IMG/VR virus record: IMGVR_UViG_3300035698_029335
Location: 1-64,000 of that record
Length of the DNA: 64,000 bases
Direction: 5' to 3' (one strand)
Source of the DNA: a virus
A program made the translations under genes and the position numbers. Shown here one piece after another: positions 43,814 to 61,883 of this stretch. Numbering within the stretch: the stretch's first letter is position 1; each line of letters opens with the position of its first letter. The notes under the pieces were generated by a model. It was given only the letters and a program-made list of their open reading frames with translations. It was not told the origin of the DNA and did no database searches.

Positions 43814-45835
43814 CTATTTTATGGGGCAAGCTCCTGACGCGCAACCAAGTTGGTCTTCTGTAATATCCTTTTCGGATATATGCAGATTAGTAATCGGTTG
43901 CACTTTTGCACGCATCTCTTCATATTCTTCTTTAGTGATCTCTTCGTATGGTGCCTGCACAAATCCATGATCTGAATGTAAGCAAAATGATAGAGATTTT
44001 ATATTAACGTTGTAGTTTTCTGTTAGCCAATTTTTTATAGCAGGCAGTTCTTCTTTCTTGTAATAAACTGTAACCGAAACTGCATTATCCGACCACTCAG
44101 TTTGTAAGCGCTTTACGATATCCAGTTGTTCAGTTGCATTAATATCTTTCGAAAATATTGCGTGACTTGGCAGTTTGCATGGAAATTCAATGACATTTGT
44201 GCCATAGTTTTCAGAGCCATCGAGTTCTTTAGCAAATTCCACCTTATAGCCTTTTTCACGACAAACATTGACCAATTCACTATCTGATGCGATTCTCATT
44301 CTCCGAATATGGTACTCAGAAAACCCTGGATGCCCGCCTGGTGTGACCCCAGCCAAAAGACTCAATGTACCACTAGGCTTGACTGTTGTCAATTTAATAC
44401 TTTCAGGGAAACCATGTTTGTCACTATATTGTTTGTCGTATTCTCTTAGTTTTACGTAAGCTCCTGCTAGCCAACTCTTCTGCTCTTCTGTTGCCATACA
44501 GTAGCCTGTAATACCGATACCCATGCGCATATTAGCGTTCACAATAGCTTCCGTCTCCTTTTGGTGACATGGCAGTGCCAAACTATGCTTGTTTATTCTA
44601 TAGAGGTACTTCAGCACTTTCATCAACTCTTCTTCACTCTCTATATTAGGGAGGAACGTCTCTGCCAAACAGCACGTTTCCTTATCAGCTAAACCTTGTT
44701 CGGCACATGGGTTAACCCCCTCAACTTTTGGATCTGGATATTGTAACTCTCCGGCTCGACCCATCTTTCTGAAGTTTTCTATATTAATCAGTCCATATGG
44801 TTCTCCGTTGCCATTATATCCTTCCCAAAACTGCTCAGGCAACTTAGAAAAGTCGTCGCACACTACTGAGTTGTTGGAATTCTTTCGCCAATTAGGAATA
44901 TTTCCCAAATCCCACCTTTTCGCATTTAGAAATTCAAAATCATCCATATCGCCGATGGCTATTTGCGCTGATCTTCTTATATTTCCAGCTACAACTATCT
45001 CTCCAATGATATTCATAATGTCCAAGCAATCAATTGGTCGAGCGCGCTTTCCTCGTCGAGCATCTAGCACTTTACAGATGTTGTCGATACCCTCAACAAG
45101 AATCTCAGGACCAGAAGCAGTACCTCCGAACCCCTTAATCTGGGTACCAGCTCCACGTACACACATTGTAGAATAGCTAAAGCCTTCACCGGACAAAAAG
45201 TAAGCTTTAAGTACTTTACCCAAGAGTTTAACCCAACCTTGCCTCGTATCAGGTACAATAAAGTCTACCCCTGCGCCCTCTTCTCTGTTAATTGCAATTT
45301 TCTTCTTCTTTACTTTAGGAAGTTGATATACATTTTCTCTCTGAATATTAAAGCCGACGCCCGACCCTAACATTAGAGCATCCATTGCCCAAATAAAAGG
45401 ATTGATAGGGTGATCTATAACCGTGAAAGAACAGTTCTGCAGGCTGAACAGTCCAAGCTTGTCGACTGTTTTCGTGCCGAGTTGCCAGAGAAATCGACCG
45501 GCGACGCTTCCTTTGAGATTCAAGAAGATATCTCGTAATTCCTCCTCTTCCTTGACACTGAATCCTACACCTAGTTGCTTGTCGCAACCCTTCAGGATCC
45601 GCTCTATTGTGTCTTTAAACTCTTCTGTCTTTTCAGAATTCTCTTTCAGCCTACGCGCATAGGTTCTCTTATAAACAATATAGCCAATCTCTCCCCATGG
45701 CGTTTCTACTTCTCTACTAAACAAGCTATCAATATTCATTATTCTATTCCTCTTCCTTATTGTTTTTGTTTTTACTTTTCGTCTTAAAAGCTTCGTACTT
45801 TTCTTTAAGTCGCTCTTTTTGCACTTTCGCGCCAT
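43814..45835 (-). CDS. nrdJ: Class II (adenosylcobalamin-dependent, monomeric-type) ribonucleotide reductase
   Basis: YKRTYAR, AGRFLWQLG, LQNC, VAGNIRRSA, NPCAE, TVKPSGT and CASGACPIK; probable start MNIDS at 45739. Confidence 0.93.
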   Translation of the reverse strand: MARKCKKSDLKKSTKLLRRKVKTKTIRKRNRIMNIDSLFSREVETPWGEIGYIVYKRTYARRLKENSEKTEEFKDTIERILKGCDKQLGVGFSVKEEEELRDIFLNLKGSVAGRFLWQLGTKTVDKLGLFSLQNCSFTVIDHPINPFIWAMDALMLGSGVGFNIQRENVYQLPKVKKKKIAINREEGAGVDFIVPDTRQGWVKLLGKVLKAYFLSGEGFSYSTMCVRGAGTQIKGFGGTASGPEILVEGIDNICKVLDARRGKRARPIDCLDIMNIIGEIVVAGNIRRSAQIAIGDMDDFEFLNAKRWDLGNIPNWRKNSNNSVVCDDFSKLPEQFWEGYNGNGEPYGLINIENFRKMGRAGELQYPDPKVEGVNPCAEQGLADKETCCLAETFLPNIESEEELMKVLKYLYRINKHSLALPCHQKETEAIVNANMRMGIGITGYCMATEEQKSWLAGAYVKLREYDKQYSDKHGFPESIKLTTVKPSGTLSLLAGVTPGGHPGFSEYHIRRMRIASDSELVNVCREKGYKVEFAKELDGSENYGTNVIEFPCKLPSHAIFSKDINATEQLDIVKRLQTEWSDNAVSVTVYYKKEELPAIKNWLTENYNVNIKSLSFCLHSDHGFVQAPYEEITKEEYEEMRAKVQPITNLHISEKDITEDQLGCASGACPIK

Positions 45836-46226
45836 TCCTTTGAATGTCTTCTATTGAGTCGTCTGTTGGCTCAAATACCTTTATGGCAACATTGGAGGTG
45901 TCCATGAAAACTGGACATACAATCCCATCATCTCCGTTCCGGTTCTTAGCTATAAAAATCCTACCGCCATTAACCTGCTTATCAGCAATTGTTCGTGAAA
46001 GAGAGAAGATAAAGTCTGCCACAAAGCACTTATTGAATGCCTCGCTGATCGCCTCCATAGTTACCACTTCTGCATTAAGACCTGAATTATGCGTGTACAC
46101 TCCATTTTCTAGAAAAAACATATGAGTATCATCAACAGTAATGTCTATTGTTTCTTCATCTCCGTACTCTTCTATCGAAGCTATTTCATCTATATTAAAA
46201 TCTGCTATATTAAGTTCATGTTTCAT
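45744..46226 (-). CDS. DnaB/gp41 helicase, C-terminal half, led by a 47-aa split-intein C-fragment (46086-46226)
   Basis: TIDITVDDTHMFFLENGVYTHN|SG, then ISEAFNK..VADFIFSL...IAKNRNG. Confidence 0.93.
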   Translation of the reverse strand: MKHELNIADFNIDEIASIEEYGDEETIDITVDDTHMFFLENGVYTHNSGLNAEVVTMEAISEAFNKCFVADFIFSLSRTIADKQVNGGRIFIAKNRNGDDGIVCPVFMDTSNVAIKVFEPTDDSIEDIQRNGAKVQKERLKEKYEAFKTKSKNKNNKEEE

Positions 46227-47299
46227 TTTTTCTCCATGAGATAATGTACGCACTTATCTACTGCTTTTAGTGGGTTTTCATCATATTCTTCTTCAGTGAT
46301 CCTGAGAATTTGATAGCCTTTTTTTCTTAAGATTTTTTCCTTAATCGAGTCTTTCTCTTCTATTCTCGCAAGTGAGTGCCAATAAGTTCCATCAAACTCT
46401 ATCACTTTGTCTTTATATAAAAAATCAACAGAAAACCAAAAACCACCTCCCATATCTTGATATTCTTTAAATTTAAATTTCTTCTCATTTCCAGCTTCTG
46501 CAAACAACACTTCAGACTCTAACAAAGAAGACTCTTTTAGGATACTCCAAAAAAGATTTTGAGATTTTTTGGAATAAGTATTACCTCGGCTACTACGCCT
46601 TGGGCTATCCATACCTTTGATAGATAACTCTGACATATGTTGGCAATATTTTTCCCATTCTACTTCTGATTCTTCGCCATATTTCTCTTCAAACCACTCT
46701 TTTGAAAACCTTTTTCTCTGGTTCTTTCTTCTAGCATCCCACTTCCTGAGCCCCTCTTCTTTGCCATCGCGCTCAACAAACGATTCGAGCGATAATCCAT
46801 TACCCCATCCGCCTTTACTTTTGACACTTTTTGTCCACTTTTCCAAATATTCTTCCCTCTTTTGCTTACCGACCTCATCACCATAACGTCTAATAAAAGA
46901 AGCCTCATCTATACTTGCTTTTGATGCACATAAATCTTCCCAAGCCAGTGTGCCATGGGTTTCGCTATAAACTTCCTTACTGAGTTTTTCTTTAGATGCT
47001 GCTATTTTTTCTTCGCGGAGTCTTTTTCCTTTCACGCCATATCTATTCTCATATGATTCTAAAGAACTGCTATCGTTTTTGAATTTCATTTTTGAGTTTT
47101 CAACTCGTTCACACCAATTTGGCTCAACGTTATGCTCTATCATTCTCAATAACATCGGTGTACAATTGTGAAAAGACCACCCTCGCTCTGTGCACATTTC
47201 ATACACAGCTGCTAACTCTAGTGCTGCAGAGTCTGAAATGTTCACAACTCCTTTGTAACTCTTGAACGACAATATTCTATTTATTATTTCATGTTTCAT
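46223..47299 (-). mobile_element. Free-standing Vsr-like homing endonuclease between the helicase halves
   Basis: Repeated F..RYG.E.G helical units; SVDF....VIEFDGTYWH...KD......GYQILRI.E. Confidence 0.85.
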
Positions 47300-47320
47300 G
47301 TTTCATGTTTCATGTTTCAT
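47287..47320. repeat. Heptamer tandem repeat (ATGAAAC x ~5 on the minus strand)
   Basis: tttcatg x4 + tttcat. Confidence 0.95.
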
Positions 47321-48652
47321 TTTTTTTGTTAATATCCCATCAGACACTTCTAAGCCTTCGTTTATTGACTTTAGTGTGCCATCTGCTGTTGGAAATTGAT
47401 GTCTTGCAGAACAAATCATCGTTTTTCCACTTTTTAATGTAATTTTATAGGTTTTTTGTACTTCTTTAGGAAATACCTTAGTAACATCTTTGAAACCTTT
47501 ATGTGTTTCAACCTGGTCGCCAACTCTTATGTCTCCTATTTTGATACTCCTTGATGCACTACCATCTCTAATAAGTAGTTTAGTAGAGGTTGAAAAGCAT
47601 CTATTTGTTTGGCTCGCAGTCCACAATGGACAAGCAAACTCGCCCGCAAGACCTCTTAATTCCTCATAGATTGACTCCAGCTCATTTCTCTTCTCACGTT
47701 CCATCCTAGTTGGCTTGAGTAGATCGCCATAGTCAACTATAATAAGATTTACTTCGAAGCCTCGCTGAATTACTCTTGTCAAGTGGCTTCTAATCGTCGC
47801 AACACTCGCCGACTTAGTTGGATATTCTTTGATAATCAATTTACCGTTAAGGCTTTTGATTTCTTCAAAGACTTCATCCTTCAGTCCATTGAGGGAGTTT
47901 AAGGGAAATTCAGTAATACACGAATCATATCTTCTGCCAACAACGGTATCTTGCAACTCTAGTGTATAGTGCACCACATTTAAGCCTGCTTTGAGAGCTG
48001 CAGCGCCAATATGCACCAATGCCATACTCTTACCCGCACCTGTTGGAGCGATACACACTCCTAACTCTCCCTTACCGTGTCCACCTTGAATTAGACCATC
48101 AATAACATCCCAACCAGTTGATACTGGGTTTCGAGATTTCACGAGATAGCGTGACTCAAAATGCTTCAGGAAATCGTAACCCTGCTCATTGTCAGAACCT
48201 AATTTCAAGGCTTTGTTGATTATTTCTTGCACTGCGTCAAAAGAACTACTCTCCATCAACTGAACGCTTTCTAACATTGCCGCTTTGAGGGTCTGCTTTT
48301 TGCAAAAATCAATTGACTTTTCCTTAACATACTCTTCATTAACTTCTTTCAGTGCACCAGAGACGATCTTAGCAAAATAATCCCTCACCTGCTTCTGCAC
48401 AGTAGCATTCATGTGCTCTATTTCAGACCTAAGGAGAGATTCTACTGTATTTCTACTAGGATAAGCGCCATACTTATCTCGATAAGAATAGATAAGCTTG
48501 GTGAACTCTTGCAGATACTTTAATTCAAGAAAACTGGTCTTTAATACTTCGCCTACTTGATCTGCAAACATCGTATCGTCCATTATCAGCTGTGCCAGTT
48601 TTTCTTGAAACGGCTTTCCGAACTTCGATAATGAGGCTTCTTCTTCTATCAT
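47303..48652 (-). CDS. DnaB/gp41 replicative helicase, N-terminal half, ending in a 98-aa split-intein N-fragment (47303-47599)
   Basis: APTGAGKS, YTLE, IIKEYPT, IIVDYGDL, WTASQTNR|CFSTST ... ICSARHQF. Confidence 0.95.
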   Translation of the reverse strand: MIEEEASLSKFGKPFQEKLAQLIMDDTMFADQVGEVLKTSFLELKYLQEFTKLIYSYRDKYGAYPSRNTVESLLRSEIEHMNATVQKQVRDYFAKIVSGALKEVNEEYVKEKSIDFCKKQTLKAAMLESVQLMESSSFDAVQEIINKALKLGSDNEQGYDFLKHFESRYLVKSRNPVSTGWDVIDGLIQGGHGKGELGVCIAPTGAGKSMALVHIGAAALKAGLNVVHYTLELQDTVVGRRYDSCITEFPLNSLNGLKDEVFEEIKSLNGKLIIKEYPTKSASVATIRSHLTRVIQRGFEVNLIIVDYGDLLKPTRMEREKRNELESIYEELRGLAGEFACPLWTASQTNRCFSTSTKLLIRDGSASRSIKIGDIRVGDQVETHKGFKDVTKVFPKEVQKTYKITLKSGKTMICSARHQFPTADGTLKSINEGLEVSDGILTKKMKHET

Positions 48653-49638
48653 TTGCTCCCCTTGATCATTCTATAAAAATTGATGAACATATTGTTAAAG
48701 TTCACTTCTCCAAATCCCTCCCTTATAATGTCTAACGAAAAGTTAGTTTGATTAAAGGCAGGCACAAAGTTGGCTAAAATGTCCTCCAGCACCTCTGTTC
48801 CTGCGTCACCAACCAGCGGCTTTGTTAGTTGCATCATCTTATAGTTCAATTCCACTACTGCTCTACCCTCTTTGAGGCTTTCGTGTGCCTTGGAAGGCTT
48901 CTCAAGGGTGCCAATATATTCCACCAGATCATCAAAACTGTATCGTTGTTCTCCTACAAGGAATGGAAACCTTTTTGCTACAGTAGGCAACCCCAAACCT
49001 CTCACGCCGGGCAAGTTATCCGAAGAATCTCCTGTAATGGCTCTTGCGAGTGCAAAGTTATTTGGATGAATCTGAAACTTTTCAATTATACTATTTCGAT
49101 TCAAGACCTCCTTTTGGATAGGTCTCATCATAACTGTGTTGCCATCTAACAATTGATAAAAATCTTTGTCGCTCGAAACTATTACTTTTTCACAATCTTT
49201 GTATTTTTCATGCTGTACAACGTAAGCGATTAAATCATCTGCTTCAACGCCTTCTACTAGCAGCTGCATCACTGGTGTCTTATTTAACATTTCAAACAAT
49301 TTCAATAACTGCCAGTCTTTGTTTTCCGCTTCCTGTTTCTCGGTCAGTTGTCGTATGTTACGATTCAATCGTAAAGGGCTGCGTCCGTCCTTGTAGTCGC
49401 TCACTAGAGCCTTTCTACCTAATGAACCACCTGGTGCATCCCAAGCTACAATAACCTCATCAGGGCTCGTCTCACGAATGATTTTTTGCAATGTTCTTAA
49501 AAAAGATATAGTGCCACCGCAAGGCTCTCCATTGGATGAGATGGCGGGAGAGACAATATAGCCACGTATAAACTGATTAAGTCCGTCCAGCACCAAAACT
49601 CTTCTTTTCTTTTTACTGTCCATAAAGTGCCTCATCAA
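48649..49638 (-). CDS. 5'-3' exonuclease / flap endonuclease (T4 RNase H-like)
   Basis: LVLDG, AWD, YKDGR, EADDLIA, VSSDKDFYQL and GDSSDNLPGVRGLG. Confidence 0.93.
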   Translation of the reverse strand: MMRHFMDSKKKRRVLVLDGLNQFIRGYIVSPAISSNGEPCGGTISFLRTLQKIIRETSPDEVIVAWDAPGGSLGRKALVSDYKDGRSPLRLNRNIRQLTEKQEAENKDWQLLKLFEMLNKTPVMQLLVEGVEADDLIAYVVQHEKYKDCEKVIVSSDKDFYQLLDGNTVMMRPIQKEVLNRNSIIEKFQIHPNNFALARAITGDSSDNLPGVRGLGLPTVAKRFPFLVGEQRYSFDDLVEYIGTLEKPSKAHESLKEGRAVVELNYKMMQLTKPLVGDAGTEVLEDILANFVPAFNQTNFSLDIIREGFGEVNFNNMFINFYRMIKGSK

Positions 49639-59492: not shown

Positions 59493-61883
59493 TTATTCTA
59501 ATGGAGTACGAGTTGTTCTACCACCAAGTACACTCTCATTAGCCTTTATTCTCGCCTTAATTTCAGAATCCAAAACACGACCAATTTCTTTCTTATCAAT
59601 AACGAGCTTAATGTTAGGTTTAATGATGACTTGTGGTGCAGGTCCATTTACTTGAGGTTGATTACGATTCGAGGTGTTTTGAGCGTATTTAGCGCTGGCA
59701 CTATTCATCTTGTTTACACTCTGTGTCGCAGTGGCTATCTGTGATGACGAGGCTGCCGCTCCAGAGGCTACAGCAGCACCAGCTAACACTGGCGCACCAA
59801 TCATATAAGAGAAGGTCATAGCCTTTGTGAGAGGCATTCTTTCGATACTATTAACAATATTATTAATTTCTTGAGCTATCCTACTGTACCCTGCAATAGC
59901 TCCGGTGAAATCCACTCCCTTAAGTGTCGAATTGAACGCGCTCATAGCAAGGAGTACCCCAACAACTAGTGGAGCCACGAGAGCTATTGCGCCCATTGCT
60001 AATACTGATGTTGTGAAGGAACCTAATGCAGCTGCTGAAGCCAGCAACTGAGTTGGAGACAACTTGGCAATTTCTGTCACTAATGCAGTTATGCCTTTCA
60101 CAGCAACCCAAATTCCTACGCCAACCAAGGCAATACCACCGCCAATAAGAAGCATGGTGCCTCCCAATGCCAATAAGCCAGGAGCAGTAGCGGTTGCAGC
60201 TGCGCCCAATGCAGCGATACCTCCAGCTGCAGCTGTTGCACCTGCGCCTGCTGCGGCACCACCAGCACCAATTGGACCCAATGATAAGCCGAAAAGTGCC
60301 GTTAACTTTGTGCCTATTACGAGCGCAGCAAAGAGACCAACCAGCGCAGCAAAGAAACCAACCAAGATTGGCATCAAGACTCCGCCCATCATATCACTTA
60401 TAGCCAAAAGACCATCCAAAACAAATTTAAATGTATTTACAAGCGGTCTAAGGCTCACGGCAAATCTCATCATCACTGCCTGTAGCTGTGCAAAGATCGA
60501 TTGTACATGCTTTGCATTTGCAGCCAGTTCAGCTTGTGATTTTGCAGCTTTCTTTTGTGCTTCTGTCATCCCGATCATTTGAGGGTTAAAAATTGCAGCC
60601 GCCTCGGTCATATCAGTGATACCTGCAGCATTCGCAACAGCCATCTTTAGAAACTTGCTCATTTCATGCCATTGTTGACCAGACAATTTTATAGAATCCT
60701 GCATCATCTTCAATCTTTCGTCTTCGGAAGCCAATAGCAAATCAACACTGTTAAGCAAATCACCACCCAATATAGCATTAAGTTTGCCAGCTGAATCAGC
60801 TGCACCTTCAAATGTATTCATCTGGGAAGTAATAGCTAGCAAACTCTCAATAGCTACACCAGTTCGTTTAGCACCTTCTGCCAAGTTCTTGAACACATCC
60901 ACCATATTGGCGCCATGTTGAGCCAGTTGCGGAGCAGCATTTGCAAAGCCTTCTGCTATTGCTGCAGGAGGCATAGCCAGAGCCTCTGCTGTAGCTATAA
61001 GCTCACGCTGCAGAACTTCTGCTTGCGTAACGGTCATACCCAGGGATCTAGTTGCAATATTTAAGTTTGATGCAGTTGTCGACGCATCAACACCCATCTT
61101 TTCTAGGATGGCAGTAGTCTTAGCTAGAGCTTGTTGTGACTGCGCACTTAAGGCGGTAAATTCCGCCATACCAACGTAAAGAGTTTGGATTGCATGCGCT
61201 GAATCGCTAGATGTGATGCCGAATTGACCAGTAGAACGTTCTATATCGACGATCATATCGTTATATTTGCCCGCTGCGCCAGTGACCTTATTAAAAGAAG
61301 CTAGTGCTTCCTCTTGTGCAGCCAACAACAACAAGCTTGCCTGAACCATCGTGTCAATGCCAGCTGTAGCTACATTTATTGGAGAAACCTGCTTCTTGAG
61401 GGTCACTAATGCAGCTGCCATCGATATACTGAACTTTTCGCCAGAGTGCAACATATGACCAGCCATTGTTTCTGCCTCACCAGTAATGCCGGTAAATCTA
61501 GAAATAGCGCTGCTTAGCTTGTTAACATATCCATCTAATGCATTGCTCTGTTGAGCGACCAATTCAAGAATCTCTTCGTTCTCTTGTCGAGTCTTGACGT
61601 ACTCTTCTGCAGTTATCTTACCCATTTCGAATTGAGTTTTAGCCTCTCTAACAAGAAGCTTTGCTATCTCAAGTTCTTTCTGCTGTATCTCTTTATGAAC
61701 ATTTAATTGACTGCCAATATCAGACTCAAACTTAAGGCGTTTCTCGATAAGGACGAGCTCCGCTGCAAGCTCGCCCTTACTTGCTTCGATAATAGCTAGC
61801 CTTTTTTCAGCTGACTTATTCAACTCTTCGGAAAGACGTAAAGCCTCCGCAAGTATTTTTGGGTCTATTATTTCATCTGCCAT
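59493..61883 (-). CDS. Tail tape measure protein
   Basis: 796-aa Ala-rich helical protein with hydrophobic segments; FEGAADSAGKLNAILG; synteny. Confidence 0.75.
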   Translation of the reverse strand: MADEIIDPKILAEALRLSEELNKSAEKRLAIIEASKGELAAELVLIEKRLKFESDIGSQLNVHKEIQQKELEIAKLLVREAKTQFEMGKITAEEYVKTRQENEEILELVAQQSNALDGYVNKLSSAISRFTGITGEAETMAGHMLHSGEKFSISMAAALVTLKKQVSPINVATAGIDTMVQASLLLLAAQEEALASFNKVTGAAGKYNDMIVDIERSTGQFGITSSDSAHAIQTLYVGMAEFTALSAQSQQALAKTTAILEKMGVDASTTASNLNIATRSLGMTVTQAEVLQRELIATAEALAMPPAAIAEGFANAAPQLAQHGANMVDVFKNLAEGAKRTGVAIESLLAITSQMNTFEGAADSAGKLNAILGGDLLNSVDLLLASEDERLKMMQDSIKLSGQQWHEMSKFLKMAVANAAGITDMTEAAAIFNPQMIGMTEAQKKAAKSQAELAANAKHVQSIFAQLQAVMMRFAVSLRPLVNTFKFVLDGLLAISDMMGGVLMPILVGFFAALVGLFAALVIGTKLTALFGLSLGPIGAGGAAAGAGATAAAGGIAALGAAATATAPGLLALGGTMLLIGGGIALVGVGIWVAVKGITALVTEIAKLSPTQLLASAAALGSFTTSVLAMGAIALVAPLVVGVLLAMSAFNSTLKGVDFTGAIAGYSRIAQEINNIVNSIERMPLTKAMTFSYMIGAPVLAGAAVASGAAASSSQIATATQSVNKMNSASAKYAQNTSNRNQPQVNGPAPQVIIKPNIKLVIDKKEIGRVLDSEIKARIKANESVLGGRTTRTPLE

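Follow-up and report, generated by a model that had tools for sequence, protein, structure and literature searches.

What does an exact repeat on either side of a free-standing endonuclease gene, lodged between the two halves of a split intein, tell us about how that intein came to be split? We asked this question of a helicase locus in a stretch of 64,000 nucleotides (positions 1 to 64,000 of the 77,458-bp IMG/VR viral record IMGVR_UViG_3300035698_029335; the whole stretch is called the window in what follows). On the minus strand of the window, a DnaB/gp41-like helicase is encoded as a fractured gene, with a split intein, whose N- and C-terminal halves are referred to as IntN (47303..47599) and IntC (46086..46226), and a free-standing homing endonuclease gene of 358 aa (46223..47299) between the halves. 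The same 17-bp sequence is found at the end of IntN and at the start of IntC, and the initial annotation had read this pair as a target-site duplication that records the fracture. Comparison with related loci points to a different history: the repeat is no record of the first invasion, and we see about an even chance that it is a recent remodelling private to this lineage, in which a short stretch at the start of IntC served as the template for a copy and a heptamer then underwent slippage.

The repeat and the heptamer array at the endonuclease junctions

The 17-mer AAAAAATGAAACATGAA occurs exactly at 47309-47325 (copy 1, at the end of IntN) and at 46215-46231 (copy 2, at the endonuclease stop and the IntC start), both on the minus strand, and nowhere else in the 77,458-bp record, as the initial annotation had it for the two flanking positions. 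When up to two mismatches are allowed, five matches are found in the window versus 0.08 expected by chance; the other three near-matches are register-shifted copies within a heptamer array. Copy 1 falls within ACA AAA AAA ATG AAA CAT GAA, and copy 2 within GAG AAA AAA TGA / ATG AAA CAT GAA, the stop codon of the endonuclease overlapping the start of IntC. Copy 1 comprises the first 1.7 units of the 7-nt tandem array, which consists of (ATGAAAC)x4 + ATGAAAT at 47287..47324 (minus strand; period 7, 5.4 copies, and 96% matches according to Tandem Repeats Finder, TRF). The IntN stop codon comes from unit 3 of the array and the endonuclease ATG from unit 4, in frame with IntN. All three ends carry the peptide MKHE, in agreement with the initial annotation: the open reading frames (ORFs) read MKHET* at the end of IntN, MKHEIINR at the start of the endonuclease, and MKHELN at the start of IntC.

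We simulated changes in the copy number of the array. Any array of at least two units gives the same two proteins and differs only in the spacing between the IntN stop and the endonuclease start; a single unit produces an in-frame fusion of IntN and the endonuclease, and with no unit left the endonuclease start is lost. Since copy numbers of two and above encode identical proteins, the array is free to drift, and it looks neutral apart from the stop-to-start spacing. A run of eight A's (47321-47328, minus strand) leads into the TG of the first ATG in the array. In a simulation with one A fewer (seven), IntN would end ...TKK*, as in the relatives described below, and the MKHET tail could stem from a slip in this homopolymer, whether a true one or an assembly artefact.

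Comparison of the junctions among related loci

We compared the junction DNA of the window with that of L164, L165/L166, L167, and L168 (endonucleases 48-55% identical to that of the window) and of L002 (28%), all of which have the same three-ORF arrangement. The longest word common to the two 80-nt junction segments is 17 nt in the window; in the relatives it is 6 nt (L164 and L165), 8 nt (L167), and 7 nt (L002). Shuffled junction segments share a longest word of about 7 nt on average, which puts the relatives at the level of chance, and never one of more than 13 nt.

The protein ends at the junctions also set the window apart. The IntN proteins of the relatives end in TRK*, TKK*, VKK*, TRKKR*, or TRKKETEDGD*, that is, in T[RK]K or VKK, to which some add a short unrelated tail; their endonucleases start with MEIDILL, MELEQLL, MKVETLL, (V)EIERIL, or MDEVKNLI. 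MKHE is absent from the IntN tails and from the endonuclease starts of the relatives examined, and in the alignment the MKH of the window endonuclease is an N-terminal extension; thus, the MKHET tail and the MKH head are private to the window lineage. The IntC starts of the relatives, on the other hand, read VKHELNIEDF, MNHSLNIEDF, MNKHKLNKNDF, MKTHKLNPMEF, and MKHDLDLSKF. Because KH-x-LN is kept in the relatives' IntC alone, we regard ATG-AAA-CAT-GAA as native at IntC and as derived at the IntN/endonuclease junction. In addition, the IntN ends of two relatives, AAAAAATGAAAA in L167 and AAAAAAAGATGAAAG in L165, have microhomology with the endonuclease/IntC junction. The DNA of the L164 IntN tail (AAAAAAGGAAACAGAA) also bears some likeness to the 17-mer, which we set aside as an out-of-frame resemblance of low-complexity, A-rich sequence.

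We infer both the copying and its direction from these sequence comparisons, and the history that we favour would run as follows. The native copy would be the endonuclease/IntC junction, where a K-K-stop overlaps ATG-AAA-CAT-GAA. The two junctions would already have been alike, each with an A-rich 'AAAAAATGAAA' design, in which a Lys-Lys-stop run overlaps or abuts ATG-AAA. The IntN/endonuclease junction would then have gained its sequence from the endonuclease/IntC junction, by a short templated copy or by conversion, and the ATGAAAC unit would next have expanded by replication slippage. The outcome would be the 5-aa IntN tail (MKHET), the 3-aa endonuclease head (MKH), and a new coupled start codon, with translation coupled through TGA-AAC-ATG after IntN and through the ATGA overlap into IntC. 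As a side effect, the locus would have acquired 17 bp of homology, recombination across which would remove exactly the endonuclease and give back a mini-intein that splices in cis. Copying and slippage would together account for the exact 17-mer as well as for the array, the MKHET tail, and the MKH head. Two sets of facts weigh against this history. None of the relatives compared is more than 70% identical in the endonuclease, close enough to catch intermediate states, so that the direction and the mechanism of the copying are judged from proteins of 28-70% identity. In addition, the 17-mer joins AAAAA, which is native to IntN (T-K-K), to ATGAAACATGAA, which is native to IntC, and a duplicated ancestral joined linker would look the same.

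Could the repeat have arisen with no copying at all? A K-K-stop/ATG-AAA coupling signal might have evolved independently at both junctions and then undergone slippage; by this route, the extra CATGAA on the IntN side would derive from an ancestral spacer and endonuclease start (...TGA AAC ATG GAA ATA...) once a single G was lost, after which the ATGAAAC/ATGAAAT pair so created would expand. At both of their junctions, the relatives do show overlaps of the ATGA type and runs of A, overlaps between the endonuclease and IntC are also found in the literature, and the relatives' endonucleases that start with M-E-I (ATG GAA AT.) are one G away from the ATGAAAT unit of the window; moreover, the array proves that slippage took place at the IntN/endonuclease junction. 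However, this route demands a coincidental match at 17 of 17 positions, longer than any word shared by the shuffled segments, and a precursor with the AAC spacer was seen in no relative examined. We consider it rather unlikely, while granting it some weight.

The same comparisons bear on the target-site duplication, whether made when the gene was first fractured or in a recent second invasion of an allele that had no endonuclease. The direct repeats immediately flank the endonuclease ORF and combine the end of IntN with the start of IntC, such that recombination between them restores an in-frame intein; the family also includes contiguous mini-inteins, with a linker at the same place; and in the published model (Dassa et al., 2009; PMC2677866) a free-standing endonuclease gene invades an intein gene and supplies the stop and start codons. 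The fracture is common to the relatives (endonuclease identity 28-55%), however, and none of them has a flanking repeat; a founding scar is unlikely, since it would not remain 17/17 identical in one lineage alone. A recent re-invasion would need a prior precise loss and then a regain, because M-K-H marks an IntC that is already split (a start codon and a conserved His). The enzymology argues in the same direction: I-Bth0305I, the prototype of the EDxHD family to which the window endonuclease is assigned below, leaves 2-nt 5' overhangs and homes by homologous repair (PMC3239194), so the characterised enzyme gives no 17-bp duplication, and no transposase is present. Furthermore, the copy on the IntN side is embedded in a slippage array, and MKHE is missing from the linkers of the contiguous relatives, as described in the next section, a result that the initial annotation had itself named as contrary to its reading. 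We find the target-site duplication improbable, and as a fossil of the fracture it does not hold against the comparative data; repeat-mediated excision stands as a testable idea.

Contiguous relatives and the predicted excision of the endonuclease

Joining the two copies of the 17-mer in silico removes 1094 nt and leaves the frame open, as had been proposed from the sequence alone. The product is a 140-aa mini-intein, ...GILTKKMKHELNIADF...THN|S, and the joined ORF reads ...GILTKKMKHELNIADFNIDEI...THN|SGLN... without interruption. The linker so formed (KK-MKHE-LN) is similar in length to that of a natural contiguous intein, P0221 (KK-KIVKRE-FN), and fused halves of gp41-1 and of gp41-8 are reported to splice well in cis. 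A working mini-intein is plausible given the in-frame product, the natural-like linker length, and the cis-splicing of the gp41-1 and gp41-8 fusions, and repeat-mediated excision of the endonuclease is, as judged from the sequence, plausible at this locus. Among the cases that we examined, the window is the only one with an exact 17-bp homology through which the endonuclease would be lost and the intein halves joined in frame.

When IntN served as the query of an exhaustive HMMER search, 369 homologues came up, mostly at protein C-termini. We scored the form of the intein in 155 proteins (150 matches listed and five from another search): 132 are split (about 85%) and 13 are contiguous (about 8%), the latter nearly all mini-inteins. 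The best match, P0150 (616 aa), is itself a contiguous mini-intein at the same helicase site, with 56% identity in IntN; its linker reads ..CKK-EESTEVSSEQGNWL-LNIDEF.., and its IntC-equivalent segment closely resembles that of the window. Similarly, P0221 reads ..LLTKK-KIVKRE-FNIKDF... Four contiguous inteins, P0150, P0221, P0163, and P0202, share the site with the window (Q-x-N-R|C...THN|S) and have their linker exactly where the window is split, but each is a single ORF without endonuclease, and the linker sequences in this group (EESTEVSSEQGNWL, KIVKRE, EILYNNLSKNENE) bear no relation to the MKHE of the window, none of them containing this peptide. No endonuclease-less KKMKHELN allele was seen among the contiguous relatives, which have other linkers.

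In the IntN tree, the contiguous forms are interspersed among the split ones; 12 changes of form are needed, and at least four of them are forced by well-supported branches. A tree of IntN and IntC together places the contiguous P0150 inside the fractured clade of the window (support 91/86), and the monophyly of the fractured members to the exclusion of P0150 is not rejected (approximately unbiased test, p = 0.18). From the scattering of the contiguous forms on the tree, transitions between split and contiguous inteins, in one direction or the other, occurred several times in the family.

This distribution invites two further ideas about what the repeats do. First, the endonucleases of this intein family might be recurrently lost by precise deletion between short repeats and later regained, the 17-bp repeats of the window being a working pre-excision state. 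If so, split and contiguous inteins would be two phases of a recurrent cycle rather than points on a one-way path, and both the contiguous forms scattered on the IntN tree and the position of P0150 inside or beside the window clade would be traces of that cycle; we think this quite improbable. Second, the repeats and the array might have been selected as a functional switch, either for frequent, reversible loss of the endonuclease or for tuning its expression through the spacing. Viewed as a candidate phase-variable contingency locus, the array has a 7-nt unit at a gene start, and the proteins change only at copy numbers of one or zero. It would fit such a switch that the deletion product is in frame, that one unit fuses IntN to the endonuclease when two or more units alter the stop-to-start spacing only, and that at least four transitions between interspersed contiguous and split forms are forced on the tree. 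However, both the repeat and the array are absent from all relatives examined and so are not conserved, the deletion is irreversible without a donor copy, and arrays of at least two units give identical proteins; selection for a switch is, in our view, very improbable. Whatever the history of the repeat, an intein-less allele (see below) together with fractured and contiguous relatives at one site makes a system for testing the rate at which split and contiguous inteins interconvert.

A few members of the family deserve separate mention. In P0264, an insert of 208 aa occupies the split site. The linker of P0240 is identical to that of an engineered gp41-1 fusion, so the protein library includes synthetic constructs. 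The P0150 linker (CKK-EESTEVSSEQ...) resembles the IntN tail of L164 (P0125/L164:2441-2510), which reads TRKK-ETEDGD*; the resemblance is weak, both being short acidic peptides. The endonuclease of L164 may have cut into an ancestral acidic linker.

Organization of the fractured helicase locus

The genes at the locus follow one another on the minus strand in the order 5'-3' exonuclease (49638..48649), helicase N-part with IntN, the 358-aa ORF, IntC with the helicase C-part, and class II ribonucleotide reductase. The ORF that encodes the helicase N-extein and IntN (48652..47303, 449 aa) ends ...GILTKKMKHET*. Its N-extein (47606..48652) ends ...CPLWTASQTNR and matches Pfam DnaB_C (5e-15) and PHROG 19 (1.6e-53). 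IntN has 98 aa, from Cys1 (47599-47597) to ...GILTKK and the MKHET tail, with its TGA stop at 47305-47303. The endonuclease gene reads MKHEIINR...MEKK*. The ORF of IntC and the C-extein (46226..45744) reads MKHELNIADF...THN|SGLNAE; it comprises the 47-aa IntC (MKHELNIADF...GVYTHN), whose last Asn codon ends at 46086, and the C-extein (45744..46085, stop included), which begins SGLNAEVVTMEAISEAFNKCF, belongs to PHROG 19, and is continuous with the N-extein in L081. Directly downstream of the C-extein lies the class II ribonucleotide reductase gene (NrdJ-like, 43814..45742, with Pfam ribonucleotide reductase domains).

In L081, a contig from a related phage, the genes stand in the same order, and the helicase, 80% identical to that of the window, is uninterrupted and reads SQTNR-SGLNAE, i.e., it is an intein-less (empty) allele. 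The N part (48652..47606) and the C part (46085..45744) of the window cover this 464-aa helicase end to end. In an alignment-based search for the locus, 81 of the 85 classified loci are intein-less helicases, and two of the other four are the window's own record. A blastn search against a phage collection gave no match, and the sole match to a degenerate IntC DNA pattern in viral contigs was contig L001. Parts of the stretch were present in 16 sequencing runs, all labelled salt lake metagenome.

The splice site is SQTNR|C...THN|S. IntN matches its homologue, the gp41-1 intein 6QAZ, with an E-value of 3e-14, and IntC aligns to residues 89-128 of the same structure (E 0.003), which together place the split at the canonical loop. 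Because Cys1, THN, and Ser+1 are conserved and the intein is homologous to the active gp41-1 and gp41-8 inteins, protein trans-splicing is predicted to rejoin the helicase.

Translation of the endonuclease is probably coupled to that of the N-fragment. A 3-nt spacer separates the IntN stop from the endonuclease ATG, and the 3' end of the endonuclease overlaps the IntC start by ATGA (4 nt). The IntC ATG has a GGAG 6 nt upstream; the endonuclease start lacks one. We found no RNA hairpin (fold z-score -0.56) and no excess of promoter-like sites before the endonuclease.

The endonuclease and comparison with known fractured genes

The endonuclease has an EDxHD/Vsr-like C-terminal domain. It matches PF04480 with 26.6 bits (cut-off 20.6) and also PF18741; its C-terminal domain matches that of I-Bth0305I (3R3P) with an E-value of 0.0015; and E301, D303, H308, and D317 are nearly invariant among its orthologues (44-55% identity). 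Based on the PF04480 and 3R3P matches and the conserved E/D/H/D residues, we assign it to the EDxHD family, which was first predicted in fractured genes, and cleavage activity is predicted. A tblastn search with the endonuclease returned distant matches only. I-Bth0305I (PDB 3R3P; PMC3239194) shares the homologous C-terminal nuclease domain with the E/D/H/D residues kept, but it is encoded by a group I intron in recA, whereas the window enzyme is free-standing in a split intein and has an unrelated N-terminal region of about 280 aa.

Fractured genes, including phage-like gp41-8 and gp41-9 helicase loci with a Vsr-like endonuclease, were described by Dassa et al. (2009; PMC2677866), so that this way of arranging the genes and the family of the endonuclease, like its overlap with the IntC start and the invasion model, have been published since 2009. 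Like the gp41-8 and gp41-9 loci, the window has two adjacent ORFs on the same strand with a Vsr-like endonuclease between them, a 3' overlap with IntC, and a phage origin. Its splice junction is of the gp41-8 type, as the initial annotation recognised (xNR|C...HN|S; LNR|SAY in gp41-8). Unlike the published loci, it has no 5' untranslated region (UTR) or hairpin before the endonuclease, and the overlap is 4 nt rather than the 6-69 nt reported (PMC2677866). A hairpin or late-promoter element in the 5' UTR before the endonuclease was found at 15 of 16 loci (PMC2677866), and is thus frequent, not defining. The flanking 17-bp repeat and the 7-nt array are also differences, neither being described in PMC2677866. 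What is new in the window comes to three details: an exact repeat on both flanks, an array of heptamers, and the lack of a 5' UTR hairpin.

The gp41-1 intein (PDB 6QAZ/6RIZ, an engineered cis-splicing fusion) is alike in its homologous Hint fold and in its split at about residues 88-90 of 6QAZ, but it lies at another helicase insertion site and its intervening endonuclease is of a type unlike that of the phage-like gp41-8/9 loci. Compared with gp41-1, the window IntC extends about 6-10 aa further at the N-terminal end, and the window IntN carries the MKHET tail. Fractured genes have been proposed as a halfway state linking contiguous inteins with naturally split ones, and split inteins of the gp41 type are important tools for protein engineering; to these the window adds a member from a large phage of a salt-lake metagenome, whose endonuclease gene is compact, lacks a hairpin, and is presumably translated by coupling.

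Among the relatives, L002 (L002:793-5531, IMGVR_UViG_3300014838_000017) has a helicase that is fractured twice, into three pieces. Its first split intein lies in the P-loop (..GAGK|C..) and has its own 316-aa Vsr-like endonuclease; the second, at SQSNR|C, has a 403-aa endonuclease homologous to that of the window, and the middle ORF carries one IntC at its start and the next IntN at its end. Elsewhere in the window, TRF identified two perfect or near-perfect tandem duplications: one with a 27-bp unit (x2.0) at 1784-1838 and one with a 21-bp unit (x2.0) at 60322-60364.

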